This document shows positions 877-42,352 of a stretch of DNA of 64,000 bases, piece after piece (position 1 is the stretch's first letter; each line of letters begins with the position of its first letter). Under the pieces are notes generated by a model. It was not told the DNA's origin, did not search any database, and worked only from the letters and a program-made list of their open reading frames with translations. Origin of the DNA: an uncultured Elusimicrobiaceae bacterium (lineage in GTDB: Bacteria > Elusimicrobiota > Elusimicrobia > Elusimicrobiales > UBA9959); assembly GCA_964415175.1 (NCBI GenBank), contig CAYPYG010000003.1, forward strand, positions 65,586 through 129,585, given 5' to 3'. A program made the translations under genes and the position numbers.

Positions 877-3378
877 GTGGAGAACATAGTATTTTTCGGC
901 AAAGGCGGCATCGGTAAAAGCACCATCGCCGCCAATGTTTCCGTCCTGCTGGCCGCCGCCGGCCGGAAGGTCCTGCATATCGGCTGCGACCCTAAGCGCG
1001 ATTCGACGCTCGCGCTGACCGGCCGCCGCATAAAGCCTTTCAGCGACGGCGGTTTCGCCGGCGCGGCCGCCCTGGCCGGCGCCGTTCACAAGGGCGCGAA
1101 GGGAATAGACTGCATAGAGGCCGGCGGTCCCCAGGCCGGCGTGGGGTGCGCGGGCGCAGGGATCGGGGCCATGCTCGACGCCGTGCGGGATTCCGGGCTG
1201 ATGGAGCGCAACGCCTACGATACCGTGATCTTCGACGTGCTGGGGGACGTGGTCTGCGGCGGTTTCGCCGCGCCGTTGCGGCGCGGTTTCACCAGCAAGG
1301 CCGTCATCGTAGTCTCCGAGGAGATCCTTTCCCTTTACGCCGCCAACAACCTGGTGGCGATGATAAACAACTACGCCAGGAACGGCGTGTACCTGGCCGG
1401 CCTGGCCGTCAACGCCAAGGATATTTCCGCCGTCCGCCGGACCGAGGAATTCGCAAGGGCCGTCGATACGCGGGTGCTGGGCGTGATACCGCGGGACCCG
1501 GCCGTCGGCAGGGCGGAGAAGGCCCGCAAGCCGGTCGTGCTGCTGGACCCGCGCAGCCCCGCCGCCGGCGCCCTGGCCGGGCTGACGAGGGGGATAATTT
1601 CCTCCGGGAAGCCGGCTTCACCGCCCCGCATGATGAGCGAGCGCGAATTCGAATCCTTTATAGGCGGCGCGGCGGCGGACGAGTCCCGGACCGGTCCCGC
1701 CCCGTCGGGGCGGCCGGCGCCGGTCCCGCCGCCGGCCCTGCTGGCCGCCGCCGGTTTCTCCGTGACGGGTCTCCTGGGCGGCCAGGTCGTATGCGCCTGG
1801 AAGAAGGGGGACGACGCCTGCAAGGTCTTCGTGGCCCCGCTCTCGGAGATCAGGCCCGGCATGACATCCGTCTCCGACTGGGCCTTCTGCTTCGCGCCGG
1901 GCGAAGAGCCGCGCGGCGACAGGGCTGCGTTCGAGTCCGCCGTGCGGGGGATCTCGGCGCTCCGCTTCGATGATTTCGTGGCGGCTTTCAGCGGAGGTCC
2001 GGATTTTTACGGCGACGCCGATTCCTTCGGCCGCACCGGTTACCATCCCCGCCTGCCGGAAGGCGACCGTCCCATAGACCAGCATACCGGCTTCGGCCAG
2101 TGGCACAGGTTCGTGTTCTCCGATAATTCAGGGGTCTGCGTCCCCCCGGGCACGGTCATAGTGGAGCACGGCGATATCGAGTGCCGCTTCAGCAGCTGTT
2201 CCAGCACCCTGCTCAATACTTTCCAGAAAATGGGGGGGCTCGCCAACGATCAGGCCCCGTCGATGGCGCCGTTCCTGCCCAAGGAAGGCTCGACCGTGAT
2301 GAACACGGATTTCGGTTACGGCGACGCCATACGGGGGGACGAGCGCAAGATGGCCGGGAGACTGGCCGCCGTCAAGACCAGGGGCAGCGCCGGGGGCCTG
2401 CTGGAGTTCTACAACGGCTGTTCGCCGCTGCTGCTCTCCAGCGACGTGAACAGTTTCCTGGAAAAGGCCTCGCGCGACCTCGGGATGGAAGTGCTGCGCG
2501 ACAATTTCAATAATTTCGAGGACGCCACTCCCGAGAAGGTCCGCGCGCGCGCGGCGCTGGTAGTCCGCCGGCTGGCCGCCCTGCGGAGGACGAAGCCGTC
2601 CTGCGATCTCAACCTCGTCAATTTCGCGTCATCCAAGGCGCTGCCGCTGGCGGACCTGCTCGCCGGGCGCGGTCTGTCGGCTGCCCCTCCCGAACGGGAC
2701 TTTTACGGTGATATCGCCGCCTCCCGCCTGCAGGTGCTGGCCTATCCGGACCCGGTGCTGACCACCGCCTTCGACGAGCTGAAGATAAAATGGACGGCGC
2801 CGCCGGCCCCCTACGGCTTCGCCGCCACCGAGGCCTGGCTGAGGGAACTCTTCGCCAGGCTCGGGCGCAAGGCGCCGCGCGGCGGCCTGGGGCCTTCCGC
2901 CGCGGAGGCCGCGGGCCGCTCCGCTCTTAAGAAGCGGCTTTCCCGCTTCGCGGCCGGATTCATCGCCTCTCCCGACGAGATCCCCACTCTGGAGGGGACC
3001 TGGGCGGTATCGGGAGTGCCGATGTTCTCGCTGCTGCGGGAAGCGGGCATGCCGGTGCGCCTTTTCGCCTATGCGCGGGACCGGGCGGCCCGGACGCTGG
3101 CCGTGAAAGAAGCGGGACTGCTCGGCAAGAGGACCGGCGCGAGGCCGAGGCTGCTCTTTTTCGATTCTCCCGCCGGTCTTCGCCGCGCGCTGTCGGCCGA
3201 CCGGACCATGCGCATAGTCTACTCCGACATCCCCGGCGACGCGCGGCTGGCCGAGGCGGGGAAGAACGATTTTTCGGCCGCCATGTGCGAACCGGGTTAC
3301 GAAGGGACCATAGAGACGATGCGCCGCCTGGCGAACCTTTGCGAATGGGAGTTCAATGAGCGATACGGCCGCCGATAA
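877..3378 (+). CDS. NifH-like Fe-protein/ATPase domain fused to NifD/NifE/BchN-like component-1 domain (copy 1)
   Basis: N-terminal ~255 aa carry P-loop GKGGIGKST, switch I CDPKRDST, and both Fe-protein cluster-Cys contexts (GGPQAGVGCAGAGIG and FDVLGDVVCGGFAAPLR). A P/A-rich linker follows. The C-terminal ~560 aa have component-1-like motifs VEHGDIECRF and FYNGCSPLLLSSD. GTG start with GAGGAGAG RBS. The same architecture recurs at 17215 and 21023. Confidence 0.85.
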   Translation: MENIVFFGKGGIGKSTIAANVSVLLAAAGRKVLHIGCDPKRDSTLALTGRRIKPFSDGGFAGAAALAGAVHKGAKGIDCIEAGGPQAGVGCAGAGIGAMLDAVRDSGLMERNAYDTVIFDVLGDVVCGGFAAPLRRGFTSKAVIVVSEEILSLYAANNLVAMINNYARNGVYLAGLAVNAKDISAVRRTEEFARAVDTRVLGVIPRDPAVGRAEKARKPVVLLDPRSPAAGALAGLTRGIISSGKPASPPRMMSEREFESFIGGAAADESRTGPAPSGRPAPVPPPALLAAAGFSVTGLLGGQVVCAWKKGDDACKVFVAPLSEIRPGMTSVSDWAFCFAPGEEPRGDRAAFESAVRGISALRFDDFVAAFSGGPDFYGDADSFGRTGYHPRLPEGDRPIDQHTGFGQWHRFVFSDNSGVCVPPGTVIVEHGDIECRFSSCSSTLLNTFQKMGGLANDQAPSMAPFLPKEGSTVMNTDFGYGDAIRGDERKMAGRLAAVKTRGSAGGLLEFYNGCSPLLLSSDVNSFLEKASRDLGMEVLRDNFNNFEDATPEKVRARAALVVRRLAALRRTKPSCDLNLVNFASSKALPLADLLAGRGLSAAPPERDFYGDIAASRLQVLAYPDPVLTTAFDELKIKWTAPPAPYGFAATEAWLRELFARLGRKAPRGGLGPSAAEAAGRSALKKRLSRFAAGFIASPDEIPTLEGTWAVSGVPMFSLLREAGMPVRLFAYARDRAARTLAVKEAGLLGKRTGARPRLLFFDSPAGLRRALSADRTMRIVYSDIPGDARLAEAGKNDFSAAMCEPGYEGTIETMRRLANLCEWEFNERYGRR

Positions 3379-4669
3379 AGTTTTCGAAAGGACTTACCAG
3401 CTGCCTTACCTGCTGGGGGTTTTCATGGCCGTCAACGCCGTGCGGGACGCCTGCCTGGTCGTGGACTCTCCCAACTGCGCTATGGTCAAGGCCGACCTGA
3501 TAGCCGGCAACCACGACCTCTTTTCCACGCTCCTCTCCCCCTCGGGCCGCCACCGCGTGGCCTGTACCATGGTGACCCCTTTCACCCCGCAGAAGAACCC
3601 GGAGAAAAGGGTGGCCGCCATACTGAACAGCATCGCCGGCTCCGGTGAATTCGGCGCCGTCCTGCTCACCGGCCTTCCTTTCGGCTGGCTGGCCGGGATG
3701 GATTACGACGGGATCGCGGCGGCCGTGCCGCCCGGTGTCCCGGCCGCCGCCGTTCCCGCAAAATCGATGGACCTGGACTGGTTGGAAGGCTACGACCTTT
3801 CGCTGGAGGCGCTGGCGCGCTCCCTGCGGTTCCCCGCCAGGCCCCGGCGCGCCGCCGGCAAGGTCGCCCTCGCGGGCTATATGCTGGACCGCAACGAGTT
3901 CGACCACGCGGCCAATCTGAAGGAACTTGAGAGGCTGCTGGCGCTCGCCGGCCTGGAACTCGTCTCCGTCTGGCCCTCCGGCGGCGGCGTGGCGGAACTC
4001 GCGAGGGCCGCCGAAGCTTCGCTGATCGTCTCGCTCCCCTACGGCCGACGGGCCGCCAGGACGCTGGCGGGGAGGACCGGGGCAAAGCTCCTGGAGACCG
4101 GGCTCCCCATGGGCCTGGGCGGCACTTCCGCCTGGCTGGCCGCCGTGAGAAAGGCCGCCGGGCTGAAAGGCGGACCTCCTCCCGCGCTGGCGGAGGCCGA
4201 ACGGGCCGCGGCGGCCGCGCTGGCCCCGGCGCTGCGGGTGCTCCGCAACCGGAACGTCCTCTTTGCCGGCGACCCCCATCTCTACTCCGCGTTCTCCTCG
4301 TTCGCGGCGGAACTCTGCGTCGGCGTGCCGGCGGCCCTGCTGGGCTCCTCCTCCAGAACGCTCGGCCCTTCCGCCGGACGGGCTGAGACCGTTCTCTTCG
4401 CCCCCTCCGCGTCCGAGGCGAGGTCCGCCCTGGCCGCCCTGCCGCGCTACCGCAAACCGGACCTGGCCGTGGCCAATTCTTTCGCCGTTACGGAGGGCTT
4501 CGCCGAAGGGCTGCCTTTCGTCGAGCTGGGTTTCCCGTCCTACGGGCATCACTGTCTTCTCGACGAACCTTATTTCGGCTATGCCGGCGCGCGCGTCCTG
4601 GCGGCGCGCATGCTGAACGCTCTGCAGGCGGGCCTGGCGGCGCCGTCTTTCAGGGAAAGAGGATTCTGA
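3356..4669 (+). CDS. NifK/NifN/BchB-like component-1 type subunit (copy 1)
   Basis: 437 aa with VVDSPNCAMVKADLIAGNHDLFSTLL, RVACTMV, LTGLPF and ELGFPSYGHHCL. It is clearly paralogous to 19661-20959 and 23644-24945. The ATG lies 23 nt inside the upstream gene. Confidence 0.7.
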   Translation: MSDTAADKVFERTYQLPYLLGVFMAVNAVRDACLVVDSPNCAMVKADLIAGNHDLFSTLLSPSGRHRVACTMVTPFTPQKNPEKRVAAILNSIAGSGEFGAVLLTGLPFGWLAGMDYDGIAAAVPPGVPAAAVPAKSMDLDWLEGYDLSLEALARSLRFPARPRRAAGKVALAGYMLDRNEFDHAANLKELERLLALAGLELVSVWPSGGGVAELARAAEASLIVSLPYGRRAARTLAGRTGAKLLETGLPMGLGGTSAWLAAVRKAAGLKGGPPPALAEAERAAAAALAPALRVLRNRNVLFAGDPHLYSAFSSFAAELCVGVPAALLGSSSRTLGPSAGRAETVLFAPSASEARSALAALPRYRKPDLAVANSFAVTEGFAEGLPFVELGFPSYGHHCLLDEPYFGYAGARVLAARMLNALQAGLAAPSFRERGF

Positions 4670-4724: not shown

Positions 4725-5549
4725 TCAGGGGAAGGGCGAGTAGACCAGCCTGTCTATGTTCAGCGCGGCCAGCTGCCTTTCCGAAGAATAGAACCTCTCC
4801 GGGAATTCCAGGAACACGGCGTTCCCTCTTATCAGCAGCTTTTCCTTTATCATCGGATGCCTGAGCTCGAAATGGCCTATCAGGCACTCGCGCGAGCAGC
4901 CCGGAGCGCGCCGCGCGCCGCCGGGAGGGTCGTCGCGCAGGCCGACGGGGCAGGCCCGCGTCGCCGTCAGGTCCAGGTACGGGTAGTGGAGAGTGACGCG
5001 GAAAGAGCGCCGGTCGAAGCCGTAACGCCGGCCTTCGCGGAAATTGGAAAGAGGCAGGGTCCCTATGGCGGGTATCTCGAAGCGGGTTATCCCTATCGAG
5101 CGGAAGAACTCCAGCGCCGCGCCGTTGTGGACTTTCAGCGGCTTGCCGGTGGTGTCGAAAACGTTGTCGCGCAGCAGGCGCCCCGCGTTAAGCCGGAACG
5201 GCAGCCGGCGCTTCGCCGCGAGTTCGACGGCACCGAAATCATTGACCGTGATCTCGAGCCCGGCCGGGCGCAGGCGGCCTTTCGCGGCCAGGGCCGCCAA
5301 TTCCGCGAAGACGCGGTCCAGCTTCGCCGCCCCGCGCTCCCCCAGCATGGGCGTGAGCAGGCAGACCTTCTTGCCCAGTCCGGACAGCCGGACGGCCTCG
5401 CGGCAGAGCGACTCGTCCAGCAGTTCCTCGCAGAATTCCGGTCCGATGTAGACGCGGGAGAAGCCGCGCAGCGCGTCCTCCGGCGCCCCGGTCCCGAGAA
5501 GGGAGTCCAGGGAGACGGGGCCGAGCCTGATCCCCTTTTCGACGGCCAT
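4725..5549 (-). CDS. U32-family-like protein, putative small partner subunit (UbiV-like)
   Basis: Start chosen at ATG 5549 (MAVEKGIRLG), 3 nt after the upstream stop. Contains RVYIGPEFCEELL and a Cys group TRACP...GCSRECL. About 274 aa, directly downstream of a clearer U32 gene. The longer track ORF to 5900 is read-through in another frame. Confidence 0.5.
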   Translation of the reverse strand: MAVEKGIRLGPVSLDSLLGTGAPEDALRGFSRVYIGPEFCEELLDESLCREAVRLSGLGKKVCLLTPMLGERGAAKLDRVFAELAALAAKGRLRPAGLEITVNDFGAVELAAKRRLPFRLNAGRLLRDNVFDTTGKPLKVHNGAALEFFRSIGITRFEIPAIGTLPLSNFREGRRYGFDRRSFRVTLHYPYLDLTATRACPVGLRDDPPGGARRAPGCSRECLIGHFELRHPMIKEKLLIRGNAVFLEFPERFYSSERQLAALNIDRLVYSPFP

Positions 5550-5551
5550 CG

Positions 5552-6499
5552 TCAAAGCCCTCCCCCGTTCCAGCGGGACATCTCCGCTATGAATTCCCGC
5601 CTGGCCGCGGCCGCGGGAAGGCGCGCGCGCAGGCCTTCCGCCAGGGAGATCATCGCGCGCATGGCCCTCACCTTGGAGACCTTCGCCGCGGGCGCGTCGC
5701 GCCGCGTGCCGTATTTGAGGTAACCGACGCCCGCCGAGAGGAGATCGAAGAAGGCGGCGGCGTCCGAGAATCGCGGCGCTCCGCACGGCGTCAGCCGGCG
5801 CTCGAGGCGCGCGAGGAGGGCGGGGAGTTCCGCCGCCCGGCGGGGCAGCTCCGGGGGGAGCGGGCGCACGAGCCCGCCGGCGCCGGCCGAGACCCGGCAC
5901 ATGGCCCCTTCCGGCAGGCCGCGCCGGGTCGTGTAATGTCCCGGCTTGTGCAGCTGGCAGCGGCCGTTCACGTAGACGCAGCCGAAGAAACGGTAGTCGA
6001 AGATCTCGGTCTCTATCCCGCGCTCCCGGCAGAAAGCGAGCAGCGGCCCGGCTTCGCGGGGGTCCAGCTGGTTGGGCAGTATGAACCGGGAGACGCCGAA
6101 CCGGGAGAAGAAGGCCGCGGCGCGGCTGTTGAAGACCGGCTGCACGGAGCTCAGGTGCAGGGCGGCGCGCAGTTTCCGCCCCGGGGCCGAGAACATCCGC
6201 AGCAGGTAAGGACTGGCGAATATGAACGAGTCGGCCCCGGCCTCGTCGAGACGGCGCACGCTCTTTTCCACGGCGGCCAGCCGCCGTACCGTGGCGGTGG
6301 CCAGCAGGGCGTTGACGGCGACGGAGATCTTCCTGCCCAGGGAGTGCGCCAGCCTGATGGCCCCGGGCAGGCGGGCGAGCGGCAGCTCTCCGGAGTGGAA
6401 AGCCGGGAGCTCCCGGGCGGCCGTATAGAATTCGTCGGCACCCGCTTCGGCGAGCGGCCCGAGTTCCTTTATGTCCGAAAAACAGGAGACTATCTTCAT
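5552..6499 (-). CDS. Peptidase-U32-family protein (UbiU/RlhA/TrhP-like putative Fe-S enzyme)
   Basis: Start at ATG 6499 (MKIVSCFSDIKELGPLAEAGADEFYTA). Contains GRKISVAVNAL. EIFDYRFFGCVYVNGRCQLH is a near match to the U32 signature (C-x4-G-x-C-x-L). About 315 aa. The track ORF to 6925 overlaps the upstream gene out of frame. Confidence 0.75.
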   Translation of the reverse strand: MKIVSCFSDIKELGPLAEAGADEFYTAARELPAFHSGELPLARLPGAIRLAHSLGRKISVAVNALLATATVRRLAAVEKSVRRLDEAGADSFIFASPYLLRMFSAPGRKLRAALHLSSVQPVFNSRAAAFFSRFGVSRFILPNQLDPREAGPLLAFCRERGIETEIFDYRFFGCVYVNGRCQLHKPGHYTTRRGLPEGAMCRVSAGAGGLVRPLPPELPRRAAELPALLARLERRLTPCGAPRFSDAAAFFDLLSAGVGYLKYGTRRDAPAAKVSKVRAMRAMISLAEGLRARLPAAAARREFIAEMSRWNGGGL

Positions 6500-6507
6500 G
6501 CCGGGGC

Positions 6508-7434
6508 TCACTGGAAAGGCTCGGGTCTTATCGCCGCCGGGTCGAGGGAGGAAGCGGAGAGTTCCGACCTGCCGTGCACGCGCAGGTAATCCTTTCTGGC
6601 GCCGCAGCAGGCCGGCTCCAGGCGGCAGCGGGAGCAGGCGGCGCACGCGGCCTTGCCGGCCACCCCCGCCTCCAGGACCCGGTCGCCGCGTCTCCAGCGG
6701 TGGAACTCGAAGGAGAACCCTTCGAAGTTCCCGAGGCGGCAGAGCGGGAAGTTCTGGACCACGGCCCTGATCCCGGCGAGTTTCAGCCGGCCGAGCGCCA
6801 GTTTGAGGTACGGTTCGACCTCGGAGTAGCGGGGCACGAGTTCCGCGCTGTCCGCGACCCGTCCCGCGTTGCGCACGAAAGTGAAATTCACGAAGGCCAG
6901 GTCCGGCAGCGCGCCGGCCGTCCACTCCGCGAAGGCCGGCAGGCGGCGGTAATTGCCGCGGTAGATGATATGGAAGAGCCTGATCCTGTCCGCGGCCCCC
7001 ATGGCTTTAAGATTTTCGAGGCCTTTCATGGCCAGGGGGAACTTCACGCTCCGGGTGGCGTGCGCGTAGGTCCTCTCGTCGGCCCCGGGCAGGTTCACCG
7101 TGAAATAGTCTATCTCCTTAACTGCCTTCCGGCAGAATGCCGGGTCGGACAGCGCCACGCCGTTCGTCGAGAGCATGAAACGCCGCACCCCGGCCTTTTT
7201 CAGCGCGGCCACCCAGTCGAAGAAATCGTTCCCGGCGGTCGGCTCGCCTCCGCCCTCCAGGCTGACCGCTTCTATCCGCCGCCGCCGCACTTCGGCCAGG
7301 ACCTTGTTCAGCGGCGCCGCCGGTTCGCCCCTGGGCGGGCTCTGGCAGCAGCGGCAATAGAGGTTGCAGGTGCGGGCCATCGGCACGCACAACTGCTCGC
7401 TGATCCAGCTTTTGTCCCCGGTCTTCCGCTTCAC
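6508..7434 (-). CDS. Radical SAM protein (small, MoaA/PqqE-like core with Cx2Cx5C tail)
   Basis: CNLYCRCC (CxxxCxxC) near the N-terminus, plus SLEGGGEPT and LSTNG. The C-terminal NFPLCRLG...CAACSRCRLEPACCG resembles the tail of the 3-791 product. Its stop lies 9 nt upstream of the U32 start. Confidence 0.8.
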   Translation of the reverse strand: MKRKTGDKSWISEQLCVPMARTCNLYCRCCQSPPRGEPAAPLNKVLAEVRRRRIEAVSLEGGGEPTAGNDFFDWVAALKKAGVRRFMLSTNGVALSDPAFCRKAVKEIDYFTVNLPGADERTYAHATRSVKFPLAMKGLENLKAMGAADRIRLFHIIYRGNYRRLPAFAEWTAGALPDLAFVNFTFVRNAGRVADSAELVPRYSEVEPYLKLALGRLKLAGIRAVVQNFPLCRLGNFEGFSFEFHRWRRGDRVLEAGVAGKAACAACSRCRLEPACCGARKDYLRVHGRSELSASSLDPAAIRPEPFQ

Positions 7435-7529: not shown

Positions 7530-8741
7530 TCAGCGCGCGCGCCTGCCGCCGGCCTTGAGGAGTTCCGCCAGCAGTTTCGCCGGGTCCTTCTTTGTGCAGG
7601 CGGTTATCATCGCGGCGATGATGAAAGGCTTGTAGCCGGCTTCCTTGTAGGTGCCGATGCGGGCCTTTTCGAAGACGCTCGCGCTCACCTCGCCCGCCTT
7701 GCAGCTGACGCCGGTGATATCGGCCGGCAGGCAGTGCATGTACACGGCCTTGCCTCCCTTCGTGAGCTTCATCTTCGCCTCGTCGCATTCCCAGCTCTTG
7801 AACTTCGCGTTGTTCTCCAGGCACTCCTTCTCCAGCGCCTTGAGACCGGCCTGGTCGCCATTCTCGAGCAGCTGCGTGCGGCGCTCCATCACCTTGAACG
7901 GGGCCCAGCTCTTTGGATAGACGATGTCGGCGTCCTTGAAGGCGCTCTCCATGCTGTTCGATACCTTGAAGCTGCCGCCGGACTTTTTAGCGTGCTTCTT
8001 CGCGACCTCGATGGTGTCGGGCAGCAGGTCGTAGCCCTCGGGGTAGGCCAGCTCCACCTCCATGCCGAAGCGGCTCATCAGCGTGATGACGCCCTGCGGC
8101 ACCGAGAGCGGCTTGCCGTAACTGGGCGAGTAGGCCCAGGTCATGGCTATTTTTTTGCCCTTGAGCTTGTCGAAGCCGCCGAAATGGTTCTTGATGAACA
8201 GCAGGTCGGACATGCTCTGCGTCGGGTGGTCGAGGTCGCACTGGAGGTTGACCACGGCCGGGCGCTGGTTGAGCACGCCCTGCTTATGGCCGTCGTCGAG
8301 GGCTTCGGCGACTTCCTTCATGTAGGTGTGGCCCTTGCCGATGAACATGTCGTCGCGGATGCCGACGGCCTCGGTCAGGAAGGAGATCATGTTGGCGGTC
8401 TCGCGCACGGTCTCGCCGTGGGCTATCTGCGACTTGCCCTCGTCGAGGTCCTGCACGGCCAGTCCGAGCAGGTTGCAAGCGCTGGCGAAGGAGAAGCGGG
8501 TGCGGGTGGAGTTGTCGCGGAAGTTGGAGACGGCCAGGCCGGTCTCGAACATGCGCGCGCTGATATTGCGGGCGTGCATCTCTTTCAGTATCTCGGCGAT
8601 CTTGAGCACCGAGTGTATCTCGGCGTCGTTCTTCTGCCAGGTCAGCAGGAAGTCCTTGTGGTAGAGGTCGGCGTCGAGTTTTTTCAGCTCGGCGATGGCC
8701 TTCTCGAGGTCGAATTTCTGCGTCTTGGTGGCGGTGGGCAT
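7530..8741 (-). CDS. ygeW: YgeW-type (knotted) carbamoyltransferase
   Basis: 403 aa. There is strong recognisable similarity to E. coli YgeW along the whole length: KDFLLTW, FRDNSTRTRFSFASA, LDEGKSQIAHGETVRETANMISF, NLQCDLDHPTQSM, KKIAMTWAYSPSYGKPLSVPQG, YMHCLPADI. Confidence 0.9.
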   Translation of the reverse strand: MPTATKTQKFDLEKAIAELKKLDADLYHKDFLLTWQKNDAEIHSVLKIAEILKEMHARNISARMFETGLAVSNFRDNSTRTRFSFASACNLLGLAVQDLDEGKSQIAHGETVRETANMISFLTEAVGIRDDMFIGKGHTYMKEVAEALDDGHKQGVLNQRPAVVNLQCDLDHPTQSMSDLLFIKNHFGGFDKLKGKKIAMTWAYSPSYGKPLSVPQGVITLMSRFGMEVELAYPEGYDLLPDTIEVAKKHAKKSGGSFKVSNSMESAFKDADIVYPKSWAPFKVMERRTQLLENGDQAGLKALEKECLENNAKFKSWECDEAKMKLTKGGKAVYMHCLPADITGVSCKAGEVSASVFEKARIGTYKEAGYKPFIIAAMITACTKKDPAKLLAELLKAGGRRAR

Positions 8742-8783
8742 GTTTTTTCTCCTGAATGATATCCTTAAAAAGGCTCCTCCGTC

Positions 8784-8797
8784 GGCGCCCGGGCGCC
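8784..8797. repeat. 14-bp perfect palindrome GGCGCCCGGGCGCC in divergent intergenic region
   Basis: Self-complementary by inspection. It lies between the divergent starts at 8741 (-) and 8845 (+). Its function (operator or 5'-UTR hairpin) is unknown. Confidence 0.3.
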
Positions 8798-8810
8798 CGG
8801 ATGCTTAATG

Positions 8811-8842
8811 GATTAAATATATTGTATCGTTTTATTGTCAAG
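8811..8842 (+). promoter_or_regulatory. AT-rich promoter-like element upstream of 8845
   Basis: Sequence gattaaatatattgtatcgttttattgtcaagg has ATTGTA at 8821-8826 and ATTGTC at 8834-8839, immediately upstream of ATG 8845. It is the same motif class as 846-851, 13004-13009 and 30705-30710. Confidence 0.3.
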
Positions 8843-8844
8843 GT

Positions 8845-9516
8845 ATGCGCTTTTTAATTCTCGCGTCCATAACCATTTTCTCCTTTTACGGCTGCTCCCC
8901 CGCGACCTACCGGCTGGGACCGGACGCCCACGCGGATTTCGCCGCCCTGACCTCTCCTCTCACGGAGGGGCGGGACTATTCCGTGGAGGTCTATGACCGC
9001 GGCGCGGAGGTGACTGTCCTGGCGCCTCACGGCGGCGACCTGGAGCGCGGCACCTCGCGCCTGGCCCGGTCCGTGGCCGGCGCCGACTGGAACCTCTATA
9101 TCTTCAACGCCTGGCTGGGGCGGGGCAGCGGCCGGCTGCACCTGACCTCGGCCAATTTCGACGACCCCCGGGCCCTGGACCTGGCGGGCCGCTCCCGGCT
9201 CGCCGTCTCGCTGCACGGCCAGGCCGAGAAGGGCAGATGGGTCTGCGTCGGCGGCGCCAACGCGGAGGCCGGCCGGCTGGTGTCGGAGGCGCTGGAAAAG
9301 GCCGGTTTCAGGACGCAGTTCCCCTGCCGGCGCCTGCCCGGCCGCTCGCCCCGGAACCTGACCAACCGGGCCGCCGCCGGCGGCGTACAGCTGGAAGTCA
9401 GCCTCTCCCTCCTGCGGGAACTTGATAAAGGGGGGGAGGATTTACCAGAATTTACGCTCGCCGTCAGGAAAGGCCTGTCGGCCGCTTTAAAGAGCATCAA
9501 GGAGACTCCCAGATGA
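8845..9516 (+). CDS. Lipoprotein, poly-gamma-glutamate hydrolase-like (DUF867/PghP-like) family
   Basis: Lipobox-like signal MRFLILASITIFSFYGCS. Contains VLAPHGGDLERGTS, LAVSLHG and GGVQLEVS, motifs typical of the DUF867/PghP zinc hydrolase fold. Confidence 0.65.
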   Translation: MRFLILASITIFSFYGCSPATYRLGPDAHADFAALTSPLTEGRDYSVEVYDRGAEVTVLAPHGGDLERGTSRLARSVAGADWNLYIFNAWLGRGSGRLHLTSANFDDPRALDLAGRSRLAVSLHGQAEKGRWVCVGGANAEAGRLVSEALEKAGFRTQFPCRRLPGRSPRNLTNRAAAGGVQLEVSLSLLRELDKGGEDLPEFTLAVRKGLSAALKSIKETPR

Positions 9517-10613
9517 AAAAGATAAGGATATTCGCTTTCGGCGGCAACGAGGTGGCCCCGGTCGGCCTCAAGGACAAGGACGGCAGGACCATCAATCCCG
9601 ATATCGCCATGCAGTGGCAGCGCACCGCCGAGACCGGCAAGCTGGTGGCCGACATCTTCGAGAAACACCCCGAAGACAGGTACGTCATCACTCACGGCAA
9701 CGGCCCGCAGGTCGGCAATATCCTGCAGCGCGCCGAGATGTGCCGCCCGACGCTCTTCCCGCTGCCGCTCGACGTCTGCGTGGCCGATACGCAGGGAGCC
9801 ATGTCCTTCATGATGGCCCAGCTCAACAATGAGCTCAATATCCGCGGCATCGACAATATCCTGGCCGGCGTCGTGACGCAGGTCGTGGTCAACAAGGACG
9901 ACCCGGATTTCAAGAACCCCTCCAAGTACGTCGGCCAGTCCTATACCGCCGAGGAGGCGAAGCGGCGCCAGGCCGAGGGCTGGGTCATGAAGATGTACAA
10001 GAAGGACGCCGCCGGCAACGAGATCTGGCGCCGCGTCGTGCCCTCCCCGGCCCCGGTGGACATCGTCGAGATAGACGCCATCGAGGCCCTGCTGGAGAAG
10101 GGCATAGTGCCGATAACCGTCGGCGGCGGCGGCATCCCCGTGCGCGAGGTGCCGGTCGAGATACAGGACGGCAAAGAGGTTTACTCCACCAATTACGGCG
10201 TGAAGTTCTCCCGCCCCCACAAGGGCGGCAAGCCGCTCAAGATGTACACCGGCGTGGAGGCCGTCATCGACAAGGACCTGGCCAGCGCCCTGCTGGGCTG
10301 CATGCTGATGAAGCGCGCCAAAGCCCGCGGCGAAAAGGTCGAGGTAAGCCTGACCATCTTCACCGGCGAGGACGGCGCCAAGCTCAATTACCAGAAACCC
10401 GACGAGAAGGCGCTGCGCGTCATAAAGGTCTCGGAGCTGGAGGAGATCTACAACCGGAAGCCGGCCCCGTTCCCGCCTGGCTCGATGGGCCCCAAGATCA
10501 AGGCCGTGATAGAGTTCATCAAGAACGGCGGTTCGGTGGCCTATATCTCCAAGACCGAGCTGTTCGAGGAGACGCTCGCGGGCAAGGCCGGCACCACCGT
10601 CCTGCCGGGCTGA
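9513..10613 (+). CDS. Carbamate kinase family protein (ArcC/YqeA-like)
   Basis: Contains IFAFGGNEV, VITHGNGPQVGNIL, ITVGGGGIPV and AVIDKDLASALL. The ATG overlaps the upstream stop (ATGA at 9513-9516). It neighbours ygeW as in the E. coli ygeW-yqeA region. Confidence 0.8.
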   Translation: MKKIRIFAFGGNEVAPVGLKDKDGRTINPDIAMQWQRTAETGKLVADIFEKHPEDRYVITHGNGPQVGNILQRAEMCRPTLFPLPLDVCVADTQGAMSFMMAQLNNELNIRGIDNILAGVVTQVVVNKDDPDFKNPSKYVGQSYTAEEAKRRQAEGWVMKMYKKDAAGNEIWRRVVPSPAPVDIVEIDAIEALLEKGIVPITVGGGGIPVREVPVEIQDGKEVYSTNYGVKFSRPHKGGKPLKMYTGVEAVIDKDLASALLGCMLMKRAKARGEKVEVSLTIFTGEDGAKLNYQKPDEKALRVIKVSELEEIYNRKPAPFPPGSMGPKIKAVIEFIKNGGSVAYISKTELFEETLAGKAGTTVLPG

Positions 10614-10623
10614 GGCGCGAACG

Positions 10624-11865
10624 ATGAAAAAAATAAAAACCCTGCAGTGCATACACTGCGGCAAGGACCATAAGCTTTCGGAGACCAGGTACAACTGCGT
10701 CGCCTGCGGCGGCAACCTGCAGGTGCTCTACGATTACAACCTGGTGAAGAAGCGGCTCAACTACGAGGTCCTCAAGGAGAACTGGGACCGCAGCATCTGG
10801 CGCTACGCGGAGCTGCTGCCGCTGCCCAACCTCAAGCATATCCCGCCGGTGCAGATAGGCTGGACGCCCCTCTACAGGGCCGAGAAGCTGGGCCAGACGA
10901 TAAACGTGCCCAACCTTTTCGTGAAGGACGACGGCCGCAACCCGTCGGCCTCGTTCAAGGACCGCGCCAACGCGGTGGTGGTGGCGCGCGCGATGGACCA
11001 GAAAGAGAAGGTCATTACGACCGCTTCCACCGGCAACGCCGCCTCCTCGCTGGCCTGCCTGACAGGGAGCCTGGACATCTCTACCGTCATTTTCATGCCC
11101 GAGAACGCGCCGCCGGCCAAGATCGCGCAGGTGCTGGTCTTCGGCGCGACGGTCATCCTGGTCAGGGGCAATTACGACGACGCCTTCGACCTCTGCCTCA
11201 AGGCCAGCCGCGAGTACGGCTGGTATAACCGCAGCACCGGCTACAACCCCTTCACGCGCGAGGGCAAGAAGACCTGCGCCTTCGAGATCTGCGAACAGCT
11301 CAAGTGGGAGGTGCCGGACAAGGTCGTAGTGCCCGTCGGGGACGGCAACATCATAAGCGGCGTCTGGAAGGGCTTCGTGGAGTTCCAGAACCTGGACATC
11401 ATCGAGAAGCTGCCGCAGCTGATAGCCGTGCAGGCCGAGGGCAGCGACGCCGTCAAGCGCGCCTTCGAGTCCGGCGCCGACATACAGGCCGTGAGCGGGA
11501 AAACGCTGGCCGACAGCATCTCCGTCTGCGTGCCGCGCGACGGGCAGGCCGCCGTAGGCGCGATAAAGGATTCCGGCGGCTTCGCGGTCTCGGTCACCGA
11601 CGACGAGATCCTGGCCGCCATACCCGAGCTGGCCCGCGGCTCCAACGTTTTCGCCGAGCCCGCCGGGGCCGCCTCCTGGGCGGGCCTCAAGAAGGCCGCC
11701 GCGCAGGGCCTGGTCAAAGAGAACGAGAGCGTGGTCCTGCTGGTCACGGGCAGCGGGCTCAAGGACGTCGGCGCCGCCATGAAGTCCGTCGGCAAGCCGC
11801 ACGTGATAAAGCCCGACCTCGGCGAGCTGAAGAAGCTGGTCTCCGGGCTGAAACTGCCGGCCTGA
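10624..11865 (+). CDS. Threonine-synthase-like PLP-dependent enzyme with N-terminal zinc ribbon
   Basis: CIHCG...CVACGG zinc ribbon followed by LQVLYDY. PLP-lysine motif NPSASFKDRA and glycine loop TASTGNAASSLA. The short ThrC-type layout. Confidence 0.75.
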   Translation: MKKIKTLQCIHCGKDHKLSETRYNCVACGGNLQVLYDYNLVKKRLNYEVLKENWDRSIWRYAELLPLPNLKHIPPVQIGWTPLYRAEKLGQTINVPNLFVKDDGRNPSASFKDRANAVVVARAMDQKEKVITTASTGNAASSLACLTGSLDISTVIFMPENAPPAKIAQVLVFGATVILVRGNYDDAFDLCLKASREYGWYNRSTGYNPFTREGKKTCAFEICEQLKWEVPDKVVVPVGDGNIISGVWKGFVEFQNLDIIEKLPQLIAVQAEGSDAVKRAFESGADIQAVSGKTLADSISVCVPRDGQAAVGAIKDSGGFAVSVTDDEILAAIPELARGSNVFAEPAGAASWAGLKKAAAQGLVKENESVVLLVTGSGLKDVGAAMKSVGKPHVIKPDLGELKKLVSGLKLPA

Positions 11866-11894
11866 GGGCCGGCCGCGCGGCGGCCGGACGGAGC

Positions 11895-12968
11895 ATGACG
11901 GGAAAGAAAGAGATCTCCAAGCTCAAGATCGCGGTCACCTCGGACTGCTGTCTCTCCTGCACGCACTGTTTCATAGATAAATCGGCCGGGCTGACCGTGA
12001 AGGAGCCCGACGCGCGGCGCGCCGTGGACGCGCTTCTGGGGTCCCCCGGGAACGCCAAGAAACTGGAACTCTACGGCGGGGAAGCCCTGCTGAAACTGCC
12101 GCTGCTGGAGCGTATAACGGACTATGCCCGCGCCGCGGCCGCGCGCCGCCGCAAGAAGCTCTCGGTCTGGCTGGCCTCCAACGGTCTCACCCTCGGCCCC
12201 GGAGAACTCGGGTTCGTCCGGTCCAGGGATATCGTGCTTTCGATAAGCCTCTACGGCTCCGCCGCCTCGCACGACCGGGTCCGCCGCTTTCCCGGCGGCC
12301 GGGGAAGTTTCGAAGCGCTGGAACGGCGGCTGCCGGCGGTGTTCGCCGCGCTCGACCCCATGCGCGTGACGGCGCTGCTCTGCGTTCATCCCTCGCGCGC
12401 GGGCCTGGCCGACAGGGACCTCGCCGGCATCCTGTCCCTCGGTTTCCGGATCGTCAACATAGAGTGCGTGCACGGCGCGCCGTGGGGGACCGCGCGGCTG
12501 GCGGCTTTTTCGCGCGCCCTGGCGCGGGCGCGCTCCTCCTTCCTCGGGACCGTGCGGGCCGGCGGTTTCTATGCCTTCGAGCCCTTCATGGAGAGGGCGT
12601 CGCCGGCGCGTGCGAAGGGACCGGATTCCTGCCCTTTCCTGCGCGACCTGGAGCTTTTCCCCGACGGGCATTACTCGCTTTACCCTTTCGGTTTCGTCGA
12701 TTATCCGCGTTACGCCGCCCAGGTCAGGATCGGGACGCCGGCGGAAGGGTTCCTGGGCCGCTTCAGAGACTGCCGCCCCGGCGGGCCGGACTGTCCCTCG
12801 TGCGTGAGCCGTTACTACCGGGTGCCCGGGCTTTCCGGCGGTTCCGAGGCATATTCCCTGCGCACGGCTTTCCTGGACGCCCTGCTGCGGGAGGTGCTCG
12901 CCTCCAAAGACCCCTCCCTCCGGCGCTATTCCGGCCGGCTCGTTTCCCTGGCCGCCTCGGTCTGGTAA
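11895..12968 (+). CDS. Radical SAM protein (distant relative of the paralog family, Cys-rich tail retained)
   Basis: Start at ATG 11895 (MTGKKEISKLKIAVTSDCCLSCTHC = CxxxCxxC). Contains YGGEALL, SISLYGSAASHDRVRRF and CRPGGPDCPSC. The track ORF from 11304 is out-of-frame overlap with the ThrC-like gene. Confidence 0.75.
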   Translation: MTGKKEISKLKIAVTSDCCLSCTHCFIDKSAGLTVKEPDARRAVDALLGSPGNAKKLELYGGEALLKLPLLERITDYARAAAARRRKKLSVWLASNGLTLGPGELGFVRSRDIVLSISLYGSAASHDRVRRFPGGRGSFEALERRLPAVFAALDPMRVTALLCVHPSRAGLADRDLAGILSLGFRIVNIECVHGAPWGTARLAAFSRALARARSSFLGTVRAGGFYAFEPFMERASPARAKGPDSCPFLRDLELFPDGHYSLYPFGFVDYPRYAAQVRIGTPAEGFLGRFRDCRPGGPDCPSCVSRYYRVPGLSGGSEAYSLRTAFLDALLREVLASKDPSLRRYSGRLVSLAASVW

Positions 12969-13071: not shown

Positions 13072-14106
13072 ATGAGGAACTGGATAATCCTGCTGATAAT
13101 AGCGCTGATGGCGCTCATCCTGGGTCTTCAGTACGCGGAAAAGAAGAGAACGGCCGCCACGGCCGTCCCGGGCCCGACGCAGCAAGGCGGGCCCGAGGGC
13201 GTACCCCTGCCCTCCGACACCGGCCCGGACGGCACCTTCGTCAATACCGGCGCGTACGATCCGGATAAGTCCGCCTGCGTGGGCGGCTCGGTCGGGGAGA
13301 TCCTCGGGGCCTACAATATGACCTGGGGGCCGAAATCGGGCAACCAGCCCTATTCGCTGAAAACGGCCGCCACGGAAAAACTGCAGAAAGGCCTGGCCGA
13401 TTATTTTTACTGCCGGGCTTTCGCCGCGAGGGACTCCGCGTCCTGCGAGAACCTGAACAATCTGCCGAGCGACCGGCGGAGGGACTGCCGTCTCGACCTG
13501 GCCGAGATGTTCTCCATGGCCTATTCCGCCGGTGTGTACAGCGACAATTCGTTCTGTGTCGCGAGGCTCAAGGAATCCGAGGCGGATTTCCCCTTCCTCG
13601 CCGGCAAGGACCACGCCGCGTTATGCGCGGCGGCCGCCAGGGGCTGCGAGGGGCTGCCGGCGGACGAGAAGAAGCAGTGCCTGACGCTGTTCCCCAGGTC
13701 CAAGGAGGACTGCGCCGGCGCCCGCGCTTCCTGCCTCGAATATTACGCTCTTTACCGGGCGATAAAGTCCGGCGATCCCGCCGACTGCCCCTCCAGCCAC
13801 AGCGACTCCTGCCGGCCCTTCGTGGCCAAGGCGGAGGCCGAGTGCTCCCCCCTGGCCCTCAACGTAAGCCGGTACTACTGCGCGGAACTGGAAAAGGCCC
13901 GCGACGCCTCCCCGGCTGCCATGCTGATCAGGCAGGAGGAGGCCCGGCAGAAGGACGCCGAGCGGGAGAAGGCCAAGCAGGAGGCGGCCGCGCGGCTGGC
14001 GGCCGAGCACGAAGCGGCCAAACAGGCCGAACGGGAGCGGCTCGAGCGGGAGAAACTGCTCGAGGAGATAAACAAAGAGATCCGGAAGTCGATGGGGAAA
14101 AAATAG
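13072..14106 (+). CDS. Membrane-anchored Cys-rich protein with charged coiled-coil tail (hypothetical)
   Basis: N-terminal TM or signal anchor WIILLIIALMALILGL. The ectodomain has about 16 Cys. The tail is EEARQKDAEREKAKQEAAARLAAEHEAAKQAERERLEREKLLEE. No family was recognised. Confidence 0.6.
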   Translation: MRNWIILLIIALMALILGLQYAEKKRTAATAVPGPTQQGGPEGVPLPSDTGPDGTFVNTGAYDPDKSACVGGSVGEILGAYNMTWGPKSGNQPYSLKTAATEKLQKGLADYFYCRAFAARDSASCENLNNLPSDRRRDCRLDLAEMFSMAYSAGVYSDNSFCVARLKESEADFPFLAGKDHAALCAAAARGCEGLPADEKKQCLTLFPRSKEDCAGARASCLEYYALYRAIKSGDPADCPSSHSDSCRPFVAKAEAECSPLALNVSRYYCAELEKARDASPAAMLIRQEEARQKDAEREKAKQEAAARLAAEHEAAKQAERERLEREKLLEEINKEIRKSMGKK

Positions 14107-14148: not shown

Positions 14149-15666
14149 ATGAAACACCCGCGAACGATACCGGAACCTTTCCTGCTTGAGGTCTTCCTGA
14201 CCAACCGGTGCAATATGGACTGCTCCTATTGCGCCTCCCGGCACATGATAACGCAGAAGACCGGCCGCGCCCTGAGCTTCGGGCAGCTCAAGGCCGCGGT
14301 GGACGTTTACGCCGCCTACGGCCGCGACGGCGGCGGGCCCCGCCGCGTTTCCGTGACGGGCGGGGAGCCTCTGCTGGAATTCGATACTCTTAAGCGCTTC
14401 GTCCGCTACGTCAGGCGCCGGTATCCCGGTTTCGAGATCAAGGTCGTGACCAATGCCACGCTGCTGGACAGGGAGAAAGCGGAGTTCTTCTTCGAGAACG
14501 ATGTCTTCCTCGTGATAAGCCTCGACGGCTGCCGGGAGGAGCACGACAGGCACCGCGTCTTCGGGGACGGCGCCGGACGCTCCGCCTTCGACGCCGTCCT
14601 GCGCAATCTCCGGCGCCTGCCGGCCGGGATGCGCCGCTCCGGCAACTTCTGCGTCTCCACGGTCATAACCTCCGAGACCGTCGCCTCTCTGCCCAGGACG
14701 CTGCGCTTCTTCGAGGAACTGGGGTTCCGCCAGGTCGCGCTCGGCTTCGACGAGTACGAGATGTGGAAGCCGGACGGGATACGCCGCCTGGAGAGAGCGC
14801 TAGCGGAGATAAAGGAGCGCCATTTCCGCGGGATAGTCGAGAGCGGCGACCTCGACGACCTCATCTGCTTCTCTTTCGTCGCCAGCTACCGGCTGGAAAG
14901 CCAGCGCCTGCTCTCGGATTATTTCGACGTTTTCTGCCGCGAGGTCACGCTGATGTTCGACGGGTACTTCTATCCCGGCGAGGCGGTCTTCGGCATGTCG
15001 GGGGAGGAGAAGTACAGGATAGGGACCCCGCGGACCGGGATAGACTTCGGCCGGGTCCGGGAGATCTATTCCGAGGCTTTCCCGGTCATACGGCGCTACG
15101 GGGAGAACGTGGGCGTGATCTGGCCGGTCAGCAGGTACTTCCACGCCGCCAACCGCGGCGTCGATCCGGACGCGATGATCGGGAACGCCGTGAGCGTCAA
15201 CGCCGCTTTCGACCGGGTCTTCGGCCCCTATTGGCGCATACAGAAGGTGCTGCTGCTGCTTAAGTCCGACGCGGCTTTCGGCGATTTCGCGCATCGCCCG
15301 AAGTATCTGGCGGGCAGGGAGACCGGCAGGCTGCGGCTCGCCGTATCCGGGATATCCGGACTCGCGGGCCTGCGGGCCGCGACCGACTATTTCCTGTATT
15401 CGCCCGGGAAGAAAAAGTCGCTGGTCCTGGAGGCCGTTGATCCCTCCGCCAGGACCCTGGACGCGGCGGAGGGGATGATTCTCTATTCGGTCATGAAGGC
15501 CCGTTCCCTTGGAAAAAAACTGGAACTGACGCTGGAGGCCGATGCGTCCTGCCTCGATGCCGGACGTTGGCGTTACCTGACCGAGCACGGCGTCAGGATC
15601 GGTATCAAGACTTCGGTAAAGAGCGCGCCCCGGAGATCACAGAACCCGCGGTGCCGCGTCTTATGA
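14149..15666 (+). CDS. Radical SAM paralog P1 (anSME/SPASM-type core, novel C-terminal domain)
   Basis: LLEVFLTNRCNMDCSYCAS; TGGEPLLEF; SLDGCREEHDRHRVF; FGDFAHRPKY; FLYSPGKKKSLVL; MKARSLGKKLEL. Confidence 0.85.
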   Translation: MKHPRTIPEPFLLEVFLTNRCNMDCSYCASRHMITQKTGRALSFGQLKAAVDVYAAYGRDGGGPRRVSVTGGEPLLEFDTLKRFVRYVRRRYPGFEIKVVTNATLLDREKAEFFFENDVFLVISLDGCREEHDRHRVFGDGAGRSAFDAVLRNLRRLPAGMRRSGNFCVSTVITSETVASLPRTLRFFEELGFRQVALGFDEYEMWKPDGIRRLERALAEIKERHFRGIVESGDLDDLICFSFVASYRLESQRLLSDYFDVFCREVTLMFDGYFYPGEAVFGMSGEEKYRIGTPRTGIDFGRVREIYSEAFPVIRRYGENVGVIWPVSRYFHAANRGVDPDAMIGNAVSVNAAFDRVFGPYWRIQKVLLLLKSDAAFGDFAHRPKYLAGRETGRLRLAVSGISGLAGLRAATDYFLYSPGKKKSLVLEAVDPSARTLDAAEGMILYSVMKARSLGKKLELTLEADASCLDAGRWRYLTEHGVRIGIKTSVKSAPRRSQNPRCRVL

Positions 15667-26403: not shown

Positions 26404-26405
26404 CG

Positions 26406-42315: not shown

Positions 42316-42352
42316 ATACTCGGAGGCGGGGCGACCGCCACGGAGGCGGACA

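Follow-up and report, generated by a model that had tools for sequence, protein, structure and literature searches.

We analyzed a window of 64,000 nucleotides (positions 65,586 to 129,585 of contig CAYPYG010000003.1, assembly GCA_964415175.1), which originates from an Elusimicrobiales metagenome-assembled genome (MAG) and has a G+C content of 63–74%. The window carries three copies of a gene that encodes a NifH-type reductase domain (H domain) and an alpha-type component-1 core (D′ core) in one polypeptide, as had been proposed in an earlier note on this DNA. The three nflH-nflD′ fusion genes lie on the plus strand as uninterrupted open reading frames (ORFs): copy 1 at 877–3378 (833 aa, GTG start), copy 2 at 17215–19683 (822 aa), and copy 3 at 21023–23644 (873 aa). 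Each of them overlaps a downstream gene on the same strand, nflK′, which encodes a beta-type component-1 protein. These partner genes are located at 3356–4669 (437 aa) and 19661–20959 (432 aa), both with an overlap of 23 nt, and at 23644–24945 (433 aa), with an overlap of 1 nt. The architecture is therefore NflH-NflD′ as a single chain with a separate NflK′, and the system is a member of the published, uncharacterised Group VI nitrogenase-like (NFL) family of Elusimicrobia.

With copy 1 as the phmmer query against all window ORFs, exactly three full-length paralogues were recovered (1866, 717, and 671 bits), in agreement with the three occurrences (at 877, 17215, and 21023) listed in the earlier note. 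The same three fusion/partner pairs were recovered with nflK′ copy 1 as the query. Identity between the paralogues was 62–69% for the H domains, 40–45% for the D′ cores, and 55–59% for the K′ partners. The conservation of the H domains far above that of the D′ cores is consistent with a shared reductase chemistry and diverged substrate sites. Compared with copies 1 and 2, copy 3 carries an insertion of ~19 residues in the middle domain and one of 22 residues directly after the GCxP cluster-ligand motif. The copy 1 protein is identical to the database entry P0001, whose 90% cluster includes HNT96641.1 ("AAA family ATPase", from an Elusimicrobiales MAG). Copy 3 is HNT96656.1, annotated as "hypothetical protein".

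Domains of the fusion protein and its partner

The domain borders of copy 1 were set from an AlphaFold2 (AF2) model (predicted local distance difference test, pLDDT, 86; predicted template modelling score, pTM, 0.60) and from alignment statistics. Alignment A1 contained 83 full-length fusion homologues, and alignment A2 contained 71 K′ partner sequences. The H domain is encoded at 877–1662 (aa 1–262) and adopts the NifH fold. Pfam Fer4_NifH matched aa 3–260 of copies 1, 2, and 3 with E values of 4e-65, 3e-56, and 4e-59, and the domain aligned end to end with Fe proteins of the PDB (E 5e-47, 34–37% identity). The AF2 model superposed on Fe-protein structures in Foldseek with template modelling (TM) scores of 0.85–0.92. 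In copy 1, the P-loop GKGGIGKS spans residues 8–15, switch I contains D38, K40, and D42, the Walker B/switch II region contains D120 and D124, and the cluster cysteines are C91 (equivalent to Av C97) and C127 (Av C132). Residues K9, K14, S15, D38, K40, D42, D120, D124, C91, and C127 are retained in 82–83 of the 83 homologues, which bears out the claim that the P-loop, switch I, and both [4Fe-4S] cysteines are kept. The H domain is 35–44% identical to NifH, MarH, and unfused NflH. The top NCBIfam models were CfbC (the best match, 216 bits), NifH, BchL, and BchX, every score being far below the curated cut-off. The N-terminal domain is a genuine ATPase/[4Fe-4S] domain of the NifH type.

The H domain is followed by a flexible linker at 1663–1728 (aa 263–284) that is rich in A, G, R, and P, with a pLDDT below 50 for aa 265–280. 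The tether described in the earlier note thus exists, but the segment SPPRMMSEREFESF, which had been assigned to it, is the conserved helix at the C-terminus of the NifH fold. This segment corresponds to helix 255–262 of the model, and its counterpart in the alignment with Fe proteins is their "PTPLxxDELE" region. Across the 83 homologues the linker is 15–33 residues long with a mean identity of only 17%, and neither a Met or start codon nor a cleavage motif is conserved within it. The remainder of the chain had been regarded as one component-1-like domain of ~560 aa. Its component-1-like character held, but it divides into a middle domain (aa 285–383), a coil (aa 384–425), and the D′ core (aa 426–833). 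The middle domain (1729–2025) comprises ~100 aa folded as a beta-sheet with three helices, and contains an SDW motif and the semi-conserved C306 and C338. The coil, a second connector encoded at 2026–2151, has a pLDDT below 50 for aa 384–399 and no regular secondary structure up to residue 425.

The D′ core of copy 1 (2152–3375, ~410 aa) was matched by Pfam Oxidored_nitro, as were those of copies 2 and 3 (E 3e-8, 3e-6, and 1e-6, respectively). When the A1 profile was compared with the PDB, its C-terminal part matched MarD (9fmg_A/9d9u_A; E 1e-16), NifD (6e-8), NifE (7e-8), and VnfD (9e-7). An hhalign comparison of A1 with A2 gave a probability of 97.2% (E 3e-11, 358 columns). On these profile comparisons, the C-terminal core is homologous to the alpha-type component-1 subunits, as the earlier note had supposed. 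The possibility that the C-terminal part is unrelated to component 1 was rejected on the Pfam, hhalign, and PDB profile matches.

The K′ partners matched Pfam Oxidored_nitro strongly (E 1e-31 to 1e-34, with 1e-34 for copy 1). Their profile preferred beta-type subunits in the PDB, namely AnfK (6e-22), NifK (1e-18), NifN (2e-16), MarK (6e-16), and BchB (7e-14). The AF2 model of K′ (pLDDT 90) reached Foldseek TM scores of 0.77–0.81 to AnfK, NifK, NifN, and BchB. The top NCBIfam models for K′ were BchN, BchB, and NifK, all far under their curated cut-offs.

Only two cysteines of the D′ core are invariant among the 83 homologues, C436 in the HGDxEC motif and C515 in the GCSP motif, which are the motifs that the earlier note had picked out as HGDIECRF and GCSPLLLSSD. 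Judged by motif and topology, C436 would occupy the position of alpha-Cys62, at the N-terminus of the helix that follows strand 1. C515 is at the position of alpha-Cys154 and aligns to "SCPT" of MarD, and Asn takes the place of alpha-Cys88. Among the K′ residues, C41 is invariant and was placed opposite D′ C436 by hhalign; C70, which lies where strand 2 ends (the beta-Cys95 position), is a cysteine in 62% of the homologues and in all three window copies. K′ residues D31, H53, and D54 are likewise invariant. Across the 83 D′ cores there was no conserved Cys or His at the ligand positions of the iron-molybdenum cofactor (FeMo-co), nor elsewhere beyond C436 and C515. Since the conserved cysteines are so few (D′ C436 and C515, K′ C41 and C70), the simplest reading is that a single [4Fe-4S] cluster would be bound at the D′/K′ interface, as in DPOR, NifEN, and CfbD (DPOR, dark-operative protochlorophyllide oxidoreductase), and that neither a P-cluster nor FeMo-co would be present. 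This reading is in line with what has been published on Group VI (PMC13474568).

Conservation of the fusion and relation to known systems

The fusion is natural and conserved in Elusimicrobia. A protein search returned >80 clusters of 790–890 aa with 95–100% query coverage, down to 27% identity. These homologues span assemblies from JGI, ENA, NCBI, and Logan, and nearly all of the named ones are Elusimicrobia. When aa 285–833 alone served as the query, 23 representatives were found at E<1e-30, and the full-length ones were all fused. A scan of GTDB species genomes gave 11 Elusimicrobia loci, and at all 11 the P-loop, the two Fe-protein Cys motifs, and HGDxEC share one reading frame and are constantly spaced. 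The loci included GWF2_62_30 (two copies), GWC2_64_44, and RIFOXYA12_FULL_57_11. In GWF2_62_30, a fusion ORF of 832 aa is followed by a partner of 425 aa.

Other architectures were also found. In one unfused operon (L002:7183–13551), nflH (273 aa) and D′ (590 aa) are separate genes joined by an ATGA overlap and followed by K′ (443 aa) and an 817 aa radical S-adenosylmethionine (radical-SAM) gene. In a second one (L014:2691–7190, from Myxococcales RS415, a genome listed in Table S2 of Meheust et al. 2020), nflH (275 aa), D′ (751 aa), and K′ (468 aa) each form a gene of their own, and this D′ carries an N-terminal extension of ~330 aa of unknown type. No similarity could be detected between the middle domain of the fusion and the extension at the N-terminus of an unfused D′. 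Because these relatives keep the H-D-K order, the fusion joins subunits that are separate and co-operonic elsewhere. A third form, H-H-D, is represented by proteins of ~1080–1114 aa (P0086, P0091, P0093, and P0249), whose named cluster members are Polyangiaceae. These contain two complete tandem NifH domains, each with the P-loop and both cysteines, followed by a component-1 core. At one such locus (L001:10001–14674 in ENA ERZ21878447 ctg45165l), the H-H-D gene is followed by an Oxidored_nitro partner of 433 aa and an ATP-binding cassette (ABC) exporter. Upstream lies an importer consisting of Peripla_BP_2, two FecCD, and ABC_tran proteins (BtuFCD; heme, B12, or siderophore type), and no radical-SAM genes occur within 10 kb of the H-H-D gene. 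H-H proteins without a D domain (P0096 and P0099) and H-D proteins of 720–790 aa were found as well. Tethering of the reductase therefore occurs in more than one form (H-D and H-H-D).

Group VI nitrogenase paralogues were described in groundwater Elusimicrobia of lineages IV and V (Meheust et al. 2020, ISME J; bioRxiv 10.1101/765248). According to that study, the system occurs in several copies per genome, its NifH has a P-loop (GXGXXG) and two cluster cysteines and belongs to a Group VI clade that is sister to Group V, and its D and K proteins are highly divergent and without P-cluster cysteines and FeMo-co ligands. Enhygromyxa salina SWB007, a named strain and not a MAG, appears in Table S2 of the study as a carrier of Group VI nifH. 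Up to 13 radical-SAM genes lie nearby, homologues occur in Myxococcales and Gracilibacteria, and reduction of a tetrapyrrole yielding a new cofactor was proposed as the function (Meheust et al. 2020). The window family agrees with this description in its invariant P-loop (GKGGIGKS), C91, and C127, in its divergent D and K proteins, which lack both the full set of P-cluster cysteines and the FeMo-co ligands, and in its Elusimicrobiales source with three copies, ~18 radical-SAM genes, and no nifB, nifE, or nifN within the window. Moreover, orthologous fused loci are present in GWF2_62_30 and GWC2_64_44, two genomes of that study.

In the Group VI papers, NflH, NflD, and NflK figure as three individual proteins, whereas H and D′ are fused in the window. 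The fusion is not mentioned in the text and supplements of Meheust et al. (2020) or in a 2026 Chemical Reviews article (PMC13474568), where we found no relevant use of "fused" or "fusion". This article reports that about one third of the genomes have "only NflH and NflD". Because the D′ scores lie near or below the Pfam threshold, automated annotation labels such proteins "NifH", "AAA family ATPase", or "hypothetical". A weak D′ score hidden in genes called NflH may lie behind both the oversight and the "only NflH and NflD" remark. No description of a natural NifH-NifD-type fusion was found in the literature searched, though one may exist elsewhere. Both the fused architecture and the range of forms (unfused, H-D, and H-H-D) appear to be undescribed in this literature.

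Among solved structures, MarHDK (PDB 9fmg/9d9u) was the best match for both halves of the fusion. MarH was the top Foldseek match (37% identity; target-normalized TM score, TMt, 0.89), and MarD was the top profile match of the D′ core, with which it shares the SCP/GCSP cysteine and the motif P(A/M)PYGFAGTxAWL. The relatedness amounts to only 37% identity and a profile E of 1e-16, and the HMM (hidden Markov model) library that was searched holds no Mar-specific model. The Mar reductase is a separate homodimer, in contrast to the fused H domain of the window.

DPOR (BchL/BchNB), chlorophyllide oxidoreductase (COR; BchX/BchYZ), and CfbCD likewise combine an ATP-dependent NifH-like reductase with a component-1-like part. 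They have a single inter-subunit [4Fe-4S] cluster and a tetrapyrrole substrate, and their reductase is never fused. Membership of the window proteins in these systems was rejected on the ligand pattern and on the NCBIfam scores (CfbC 216 against a cut-off of 402, BchL 168 against 345, and BchN 47 against 420). Nitrogenase proper has P-cluster cysteines at alpha 62, 88, and 154 and beta 70, 95, and 153, and FeMo-co ligands at alpha C275 and H442. A true nitrogenase was rejected as well, since alpha-88 is Asn, beta-153 is not Cys, there is no equivalent of C275 or H442, and TIGR01287 scored 189–209 against a cut-off of 394. In NCBIfam and Pfam, the window proteins scored far under any equivalog cut-off, and none of the H, D′, K′, or radical-SAM proteins of the window could be assigned to an NCBIfam model at equivalog level.

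The only natural fusions of nif-system proteins found in the literature searched were NifE-NifN, NifN-NifB, and NifB-NifX. They are a precedent for fusion, but none of them couples a transiently docking ATPase to its acceptor. An engineered NifH-NifH tandem (Yang et al. 2018, cited in PMC13385145, Plant Mol Biol 2026) is presented in the citing article as showing that a flexible linker of ~25 residues is compatible with function. This construct is artificial and joins H to H, whereas the window proteins occur naturally and link H with a catalytic subunit. Proteins with two linked H domains also occur in nature, namely the H-H-D proteins of Polyangiaceae.

Proposed function and alternative explanations

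The function that we consider probable is that of three paralogous Group VI modules, in each of which an ATP-dependent electron donor is tethered to an alpha-type catalytic subunit, with the beta-type NflK′ alongside and an organic molecule as the substrate. From homology to NifH, BchL, CfbC, and MarH, we infer the following electron path. Translational coupling through the overlapping downstream gene would supply NflK′ to each NflH-NflD′ chain. The H domains of two chains would dimerize around a shared [4Fe-4S] cluster held by C91 and C127 of each chain. Binding and hydrolysis of MgATP would then drive docking of this H2 dimer onto a D′K′ pair, upon which one electron would pass to the simple [4Fe-4S] cluster at the D′/K′ interface (D′ C436 and C515; K′ C41 and usually C70) and onward to the organic substrate bound in D′K′. 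The leash, composed of the linker of 15–33 residues, the middle domain, and the second coil of ~40 residues, would still allow docking and undocking, while keeping the reductase at a high local concentration and in a fixed, equimolar stoichiometry. It is reasonable to suppose, as the earlier note did, that tethering would alter the dock-undock cycle. The substrate would probably be a metabolite or cofactor precursor made or tailored by the ~18 neighboring radical-SAM enzymes. The three modules are likely to differ in the reduction that they catalyze, in the manner of DPOR and COR in bacteriochlorophyll synthesis, whose sequential action is a precedent for several modules in one pathway.

The fusion sets H:D:K at 1:1:1, compared with 2:1:1 in conventional systems. 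As there is one H domain per D′K′, a canonical alpha2beta2 tetramer would own only one H2 dimer for two docking sites, and the quaternary structure cannot be the textbook one. Possible outcomes are that the two halves are served alternately, that the quaternary structure is different, or that H domains pair between complexes. A more specific proposal, which we regard as conceivable but doubtful, is that the 1:1 link makes one H2 dimer alternate between two D′K′ pairs (half-of-sites reactivity), or that H domains of different paralogues form heterodimers and couple their D′K′ pairs into an assembly line. In the latter version, successive reductions would take place on one scaffold built by radical-SAM enzymes. 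The H-H-D proteins would restore the 2:1:1 ratio within one chain and represent an alternative evolutionary solution, a pseudo-dimeric reductase on one catalytic subunit.

Besides this unusual stoichiometry, several observations weigh against tethered electron donors of the proposed kind. The residue equivalent to Arg100, three positions past the first cluster Cys, is Arg in none of the 83 members of the ~830 aa H-D family, which have A, T, V, L, or M instead. In the window it is encoded at 1156–1158 (aa 94, copy 1), 17497–17499 (aa 95, copy 2), and 21308–21310 (aa 96, copy 3). All 44 motifs of the H-H-D proteins have Arg at this position. Arg100 of A. vinelandii NifH is a docking and ADP-ribosylation site, and its absence from 83 of 83 sequences implies that the tethered reductase has a docking surface unlike that of nitrogenase. 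The Oxidored_nitro gathering score of 28.6 was exceeded by copy 1 only, copies 2 and 3 remaining below it. The predicted cluster ligands rest on correspondence of motifs and topology and on hhalign rather than on a structure of the complex. The pTM of 0.60 of the copy 1 monomer model leaves the inter-domain geometry undefined. The middle domain had no Pfam match and no PDB profile match (best E 0.23). Finally, the Chemical Reviews article repeats the Group VI account and lists the family as biochemically uncharacterised (PMC13474568).

The loss of the Arg100-equivalent docking residue, and a 1:1:1 stoichiometry that is odd for a canonical reductase, would also fit a fused H domain that acts as a dedicated maturase or chaperone of its own D′K′ cluster, or as a stabilizer of the complex, with another protein donating the electrons. 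NifH is known to have such roles, in P-cluster maturation and FeMo-co assembly (noted in PMC13385145). We nevertheless judge this explanation unlikely, as ATP hydrolysis and signal transduction to the cluster depend on residues that are all invariant, unfused relatives hold a normal free NflH within an H-D-K operon, and no gene for an alternative low-potential donor was seen in the window cluster. About equally improbable is a D′K′ pair that serves as a NifEN-like scaffold and, with the radical-SAM proteins, builds a new metallocluster or cofactor, to which H would supply electrons or metal. The A1 profile matches NifE about as well as NifD, K′ matches NifN, the radical-SAM context is very large, and synthesis of a novel cofactor was already proposed by Meheust et al. 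(2020). However, none of the radical-SAM genes scores as NifB, their best matches being SPASM peptide-maturase-like and HemN-like, and there are no conserved additional Cys or His residues for a second cluster. Three diverged modules, moreover, suggest several substrates and not one scaffold.

A conventional working enzyme could also arise if the fusion chain were cleaved after synthesis, or if an internal start yielded free D′. The linker is modelled as disordered and would be accessible to proteases, but this segment, 17% identical and variable in length, lacks any conserved sign of an internal start (Met or start codon) and any conserved motif for cleavage. In addition, the fusion is kept in relatives down to 27% identity, which points to selection on the covalent link and makes cleavage slightly less credible still than the maturase and scaffold roles. 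An assembly or frameshift artefact that merged adjacent nflH and nflD can practically be dismissed, as the earlier note had also argued: a single error could merge the unfused H and D′ genes across their ATGA overlap, but the fusion occurs in three diverged paralogues, in >80 homologues of 790–890 aa from different assemblers and samples, and at 11 of 11 Elusimicrobia loci with constant in-frame motif spacing, and the fused proteins carry a specific linker of ~20 aa that the overlapping unfused genes do not have.

To our knowledge, every studied enzyme of the nitrogenase family depends for electron delivery on a free ATPase dimer, whose transient docking acts as the gate. This docking limits the rate, is difficult to capture in structures, and stands in the way of engineering. 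The fusion proteins with their unfused and H-H-D relatives provide a comparative series for the effects of tethering on the ATP/electron cycle and on half-site reactivity, and the tethered form is a favorable target for cryo-electron microscopy of the docked state. They are also a natural precedent for the fixed-stoichiometry fusions made by engineers of plant nitrogenase. In addition, counts of Group VI genes need correction for D′ domains hidden in genes labelled "NifH", "AAA family ATPase", or "hypothetical protein", and a cluster of >50 kb with ~18 radical-SAM enzymes is brought to notice.

Gene neighborhood

The cluster that contains the three modules extends from before position 1 to ~53.3 kb. 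Its ~18 radical-SAM genes within 53 kb exceed the maximum of 13 reported for any Group VI neighborhood. They are mostly SPASM/twitch-like and show sub-threshold similarity to maturases of ribosomally synthesized and post-translationally modified peptides (RiPPs) (Pfam Radical_SAM/Fer4_12 and NCBIfam). None of them scores as NifB, and no NifB, NifE, or NifN was seen among the window proteins. No obvious RiPP precursor was seen in the 1.2 kb gap at 11.9–13.1 kb, the sole gap inspected for small ORFs.

Thirteen radical-SAM genes, matched by Pfam Radical_SAM/Fer4_12, form a co-directional block on the plus strand at 28039–53351. They are located at 28039–29427, 32100–34283, 34280–35845, 35728–37251, 37248–38648, 40939–42315, 43188–44546, 44543–45865, 45862–47283, 47280–48689, 48686–50077, 50095–51885, and 51810–53351. 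The protein encoded at 50095–51885 is HemN/STM4012/ChuW-like (NCBIfam E 2e-58, under the cut-off). As the sole window gene with a tetrapyrrole flavor, it lends weak support to the published tetrapyrrole hypothesis. The block also contains, on the same strand, an aldo-keto reductase (30795–32090), a phosphoenolpyruvate-utilizing enzyme with PPDK_N and mobile domains (38645–40942), and two genes of unknown type (29424–30692 and 42296–43135). The enzyme at 38645–40942 is faintly similar to the prodigiosin ligases PigC and RedH, and it could be responsible for a step of the pathway in which ATP drives a condensation or a phosphorylation.

On the plus strand, fusion copy 2 is immediately preceded by a radical-SAM gene (14149–15666) and a gene for a tetratricopeptide repeat protein (15567–17210). 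Two radical-SAM/SPASM-like genes occupy 24946–27905 on the minus strand. Many ORF calls over-extend upstream in this high-GC window; for example, 24946–26871 and 26406–27905, both on the minus strand, overlap by 466 nt. A further radical-SAM-like gene with a CX3CX2C motif ("CCLSCTHC") lies at 11900–12968 on the plus strand, inside a longer spurious ORF (11304–12968), and another radical-SAM gene lies at 6508–7434 on the minus strand.

The minus strand also carries two U32-family (UbiU/TrhP-like) genes at 4725–5900 and 5552–6925, of which the former had no HMM match and was included by position only. One ORF of this pair (4725–6925) has weak similarity to UbiU/TrhP, and the pair recalls the O2-independent hydroxylase pair UbiU-UbiV. 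The ORF at 13072–14106 encodes a protein of 344 aa with an N-terminal membrane anchor, 16 cysteines, a charged C-terminal coiled coil, and no Pfam match. Upstream of the Myxococcales locus, too, there are Cys-rich ORFs that look like lipoproteins (L014:733–2421, minus strand). An inserted block at 7530–11865 encodes a carbamoyltransferase, a protein resembling poly-gamma-glutamate hydrolases, an amino-acid (carbamate) kinase-like protein, and a pyridoxal phosphate-dependent enzyme. It presumably resembles the ygeW-ygeX-yqeA group of E. coli and is probably unrelated to the NFL cluster. Beyond 53.3 kb, the genes are unrelated to the cluster and encode SpoIID, an extracytoplasmic function sigma factor, a subtilase, and a GT2 glycosyltransferase.

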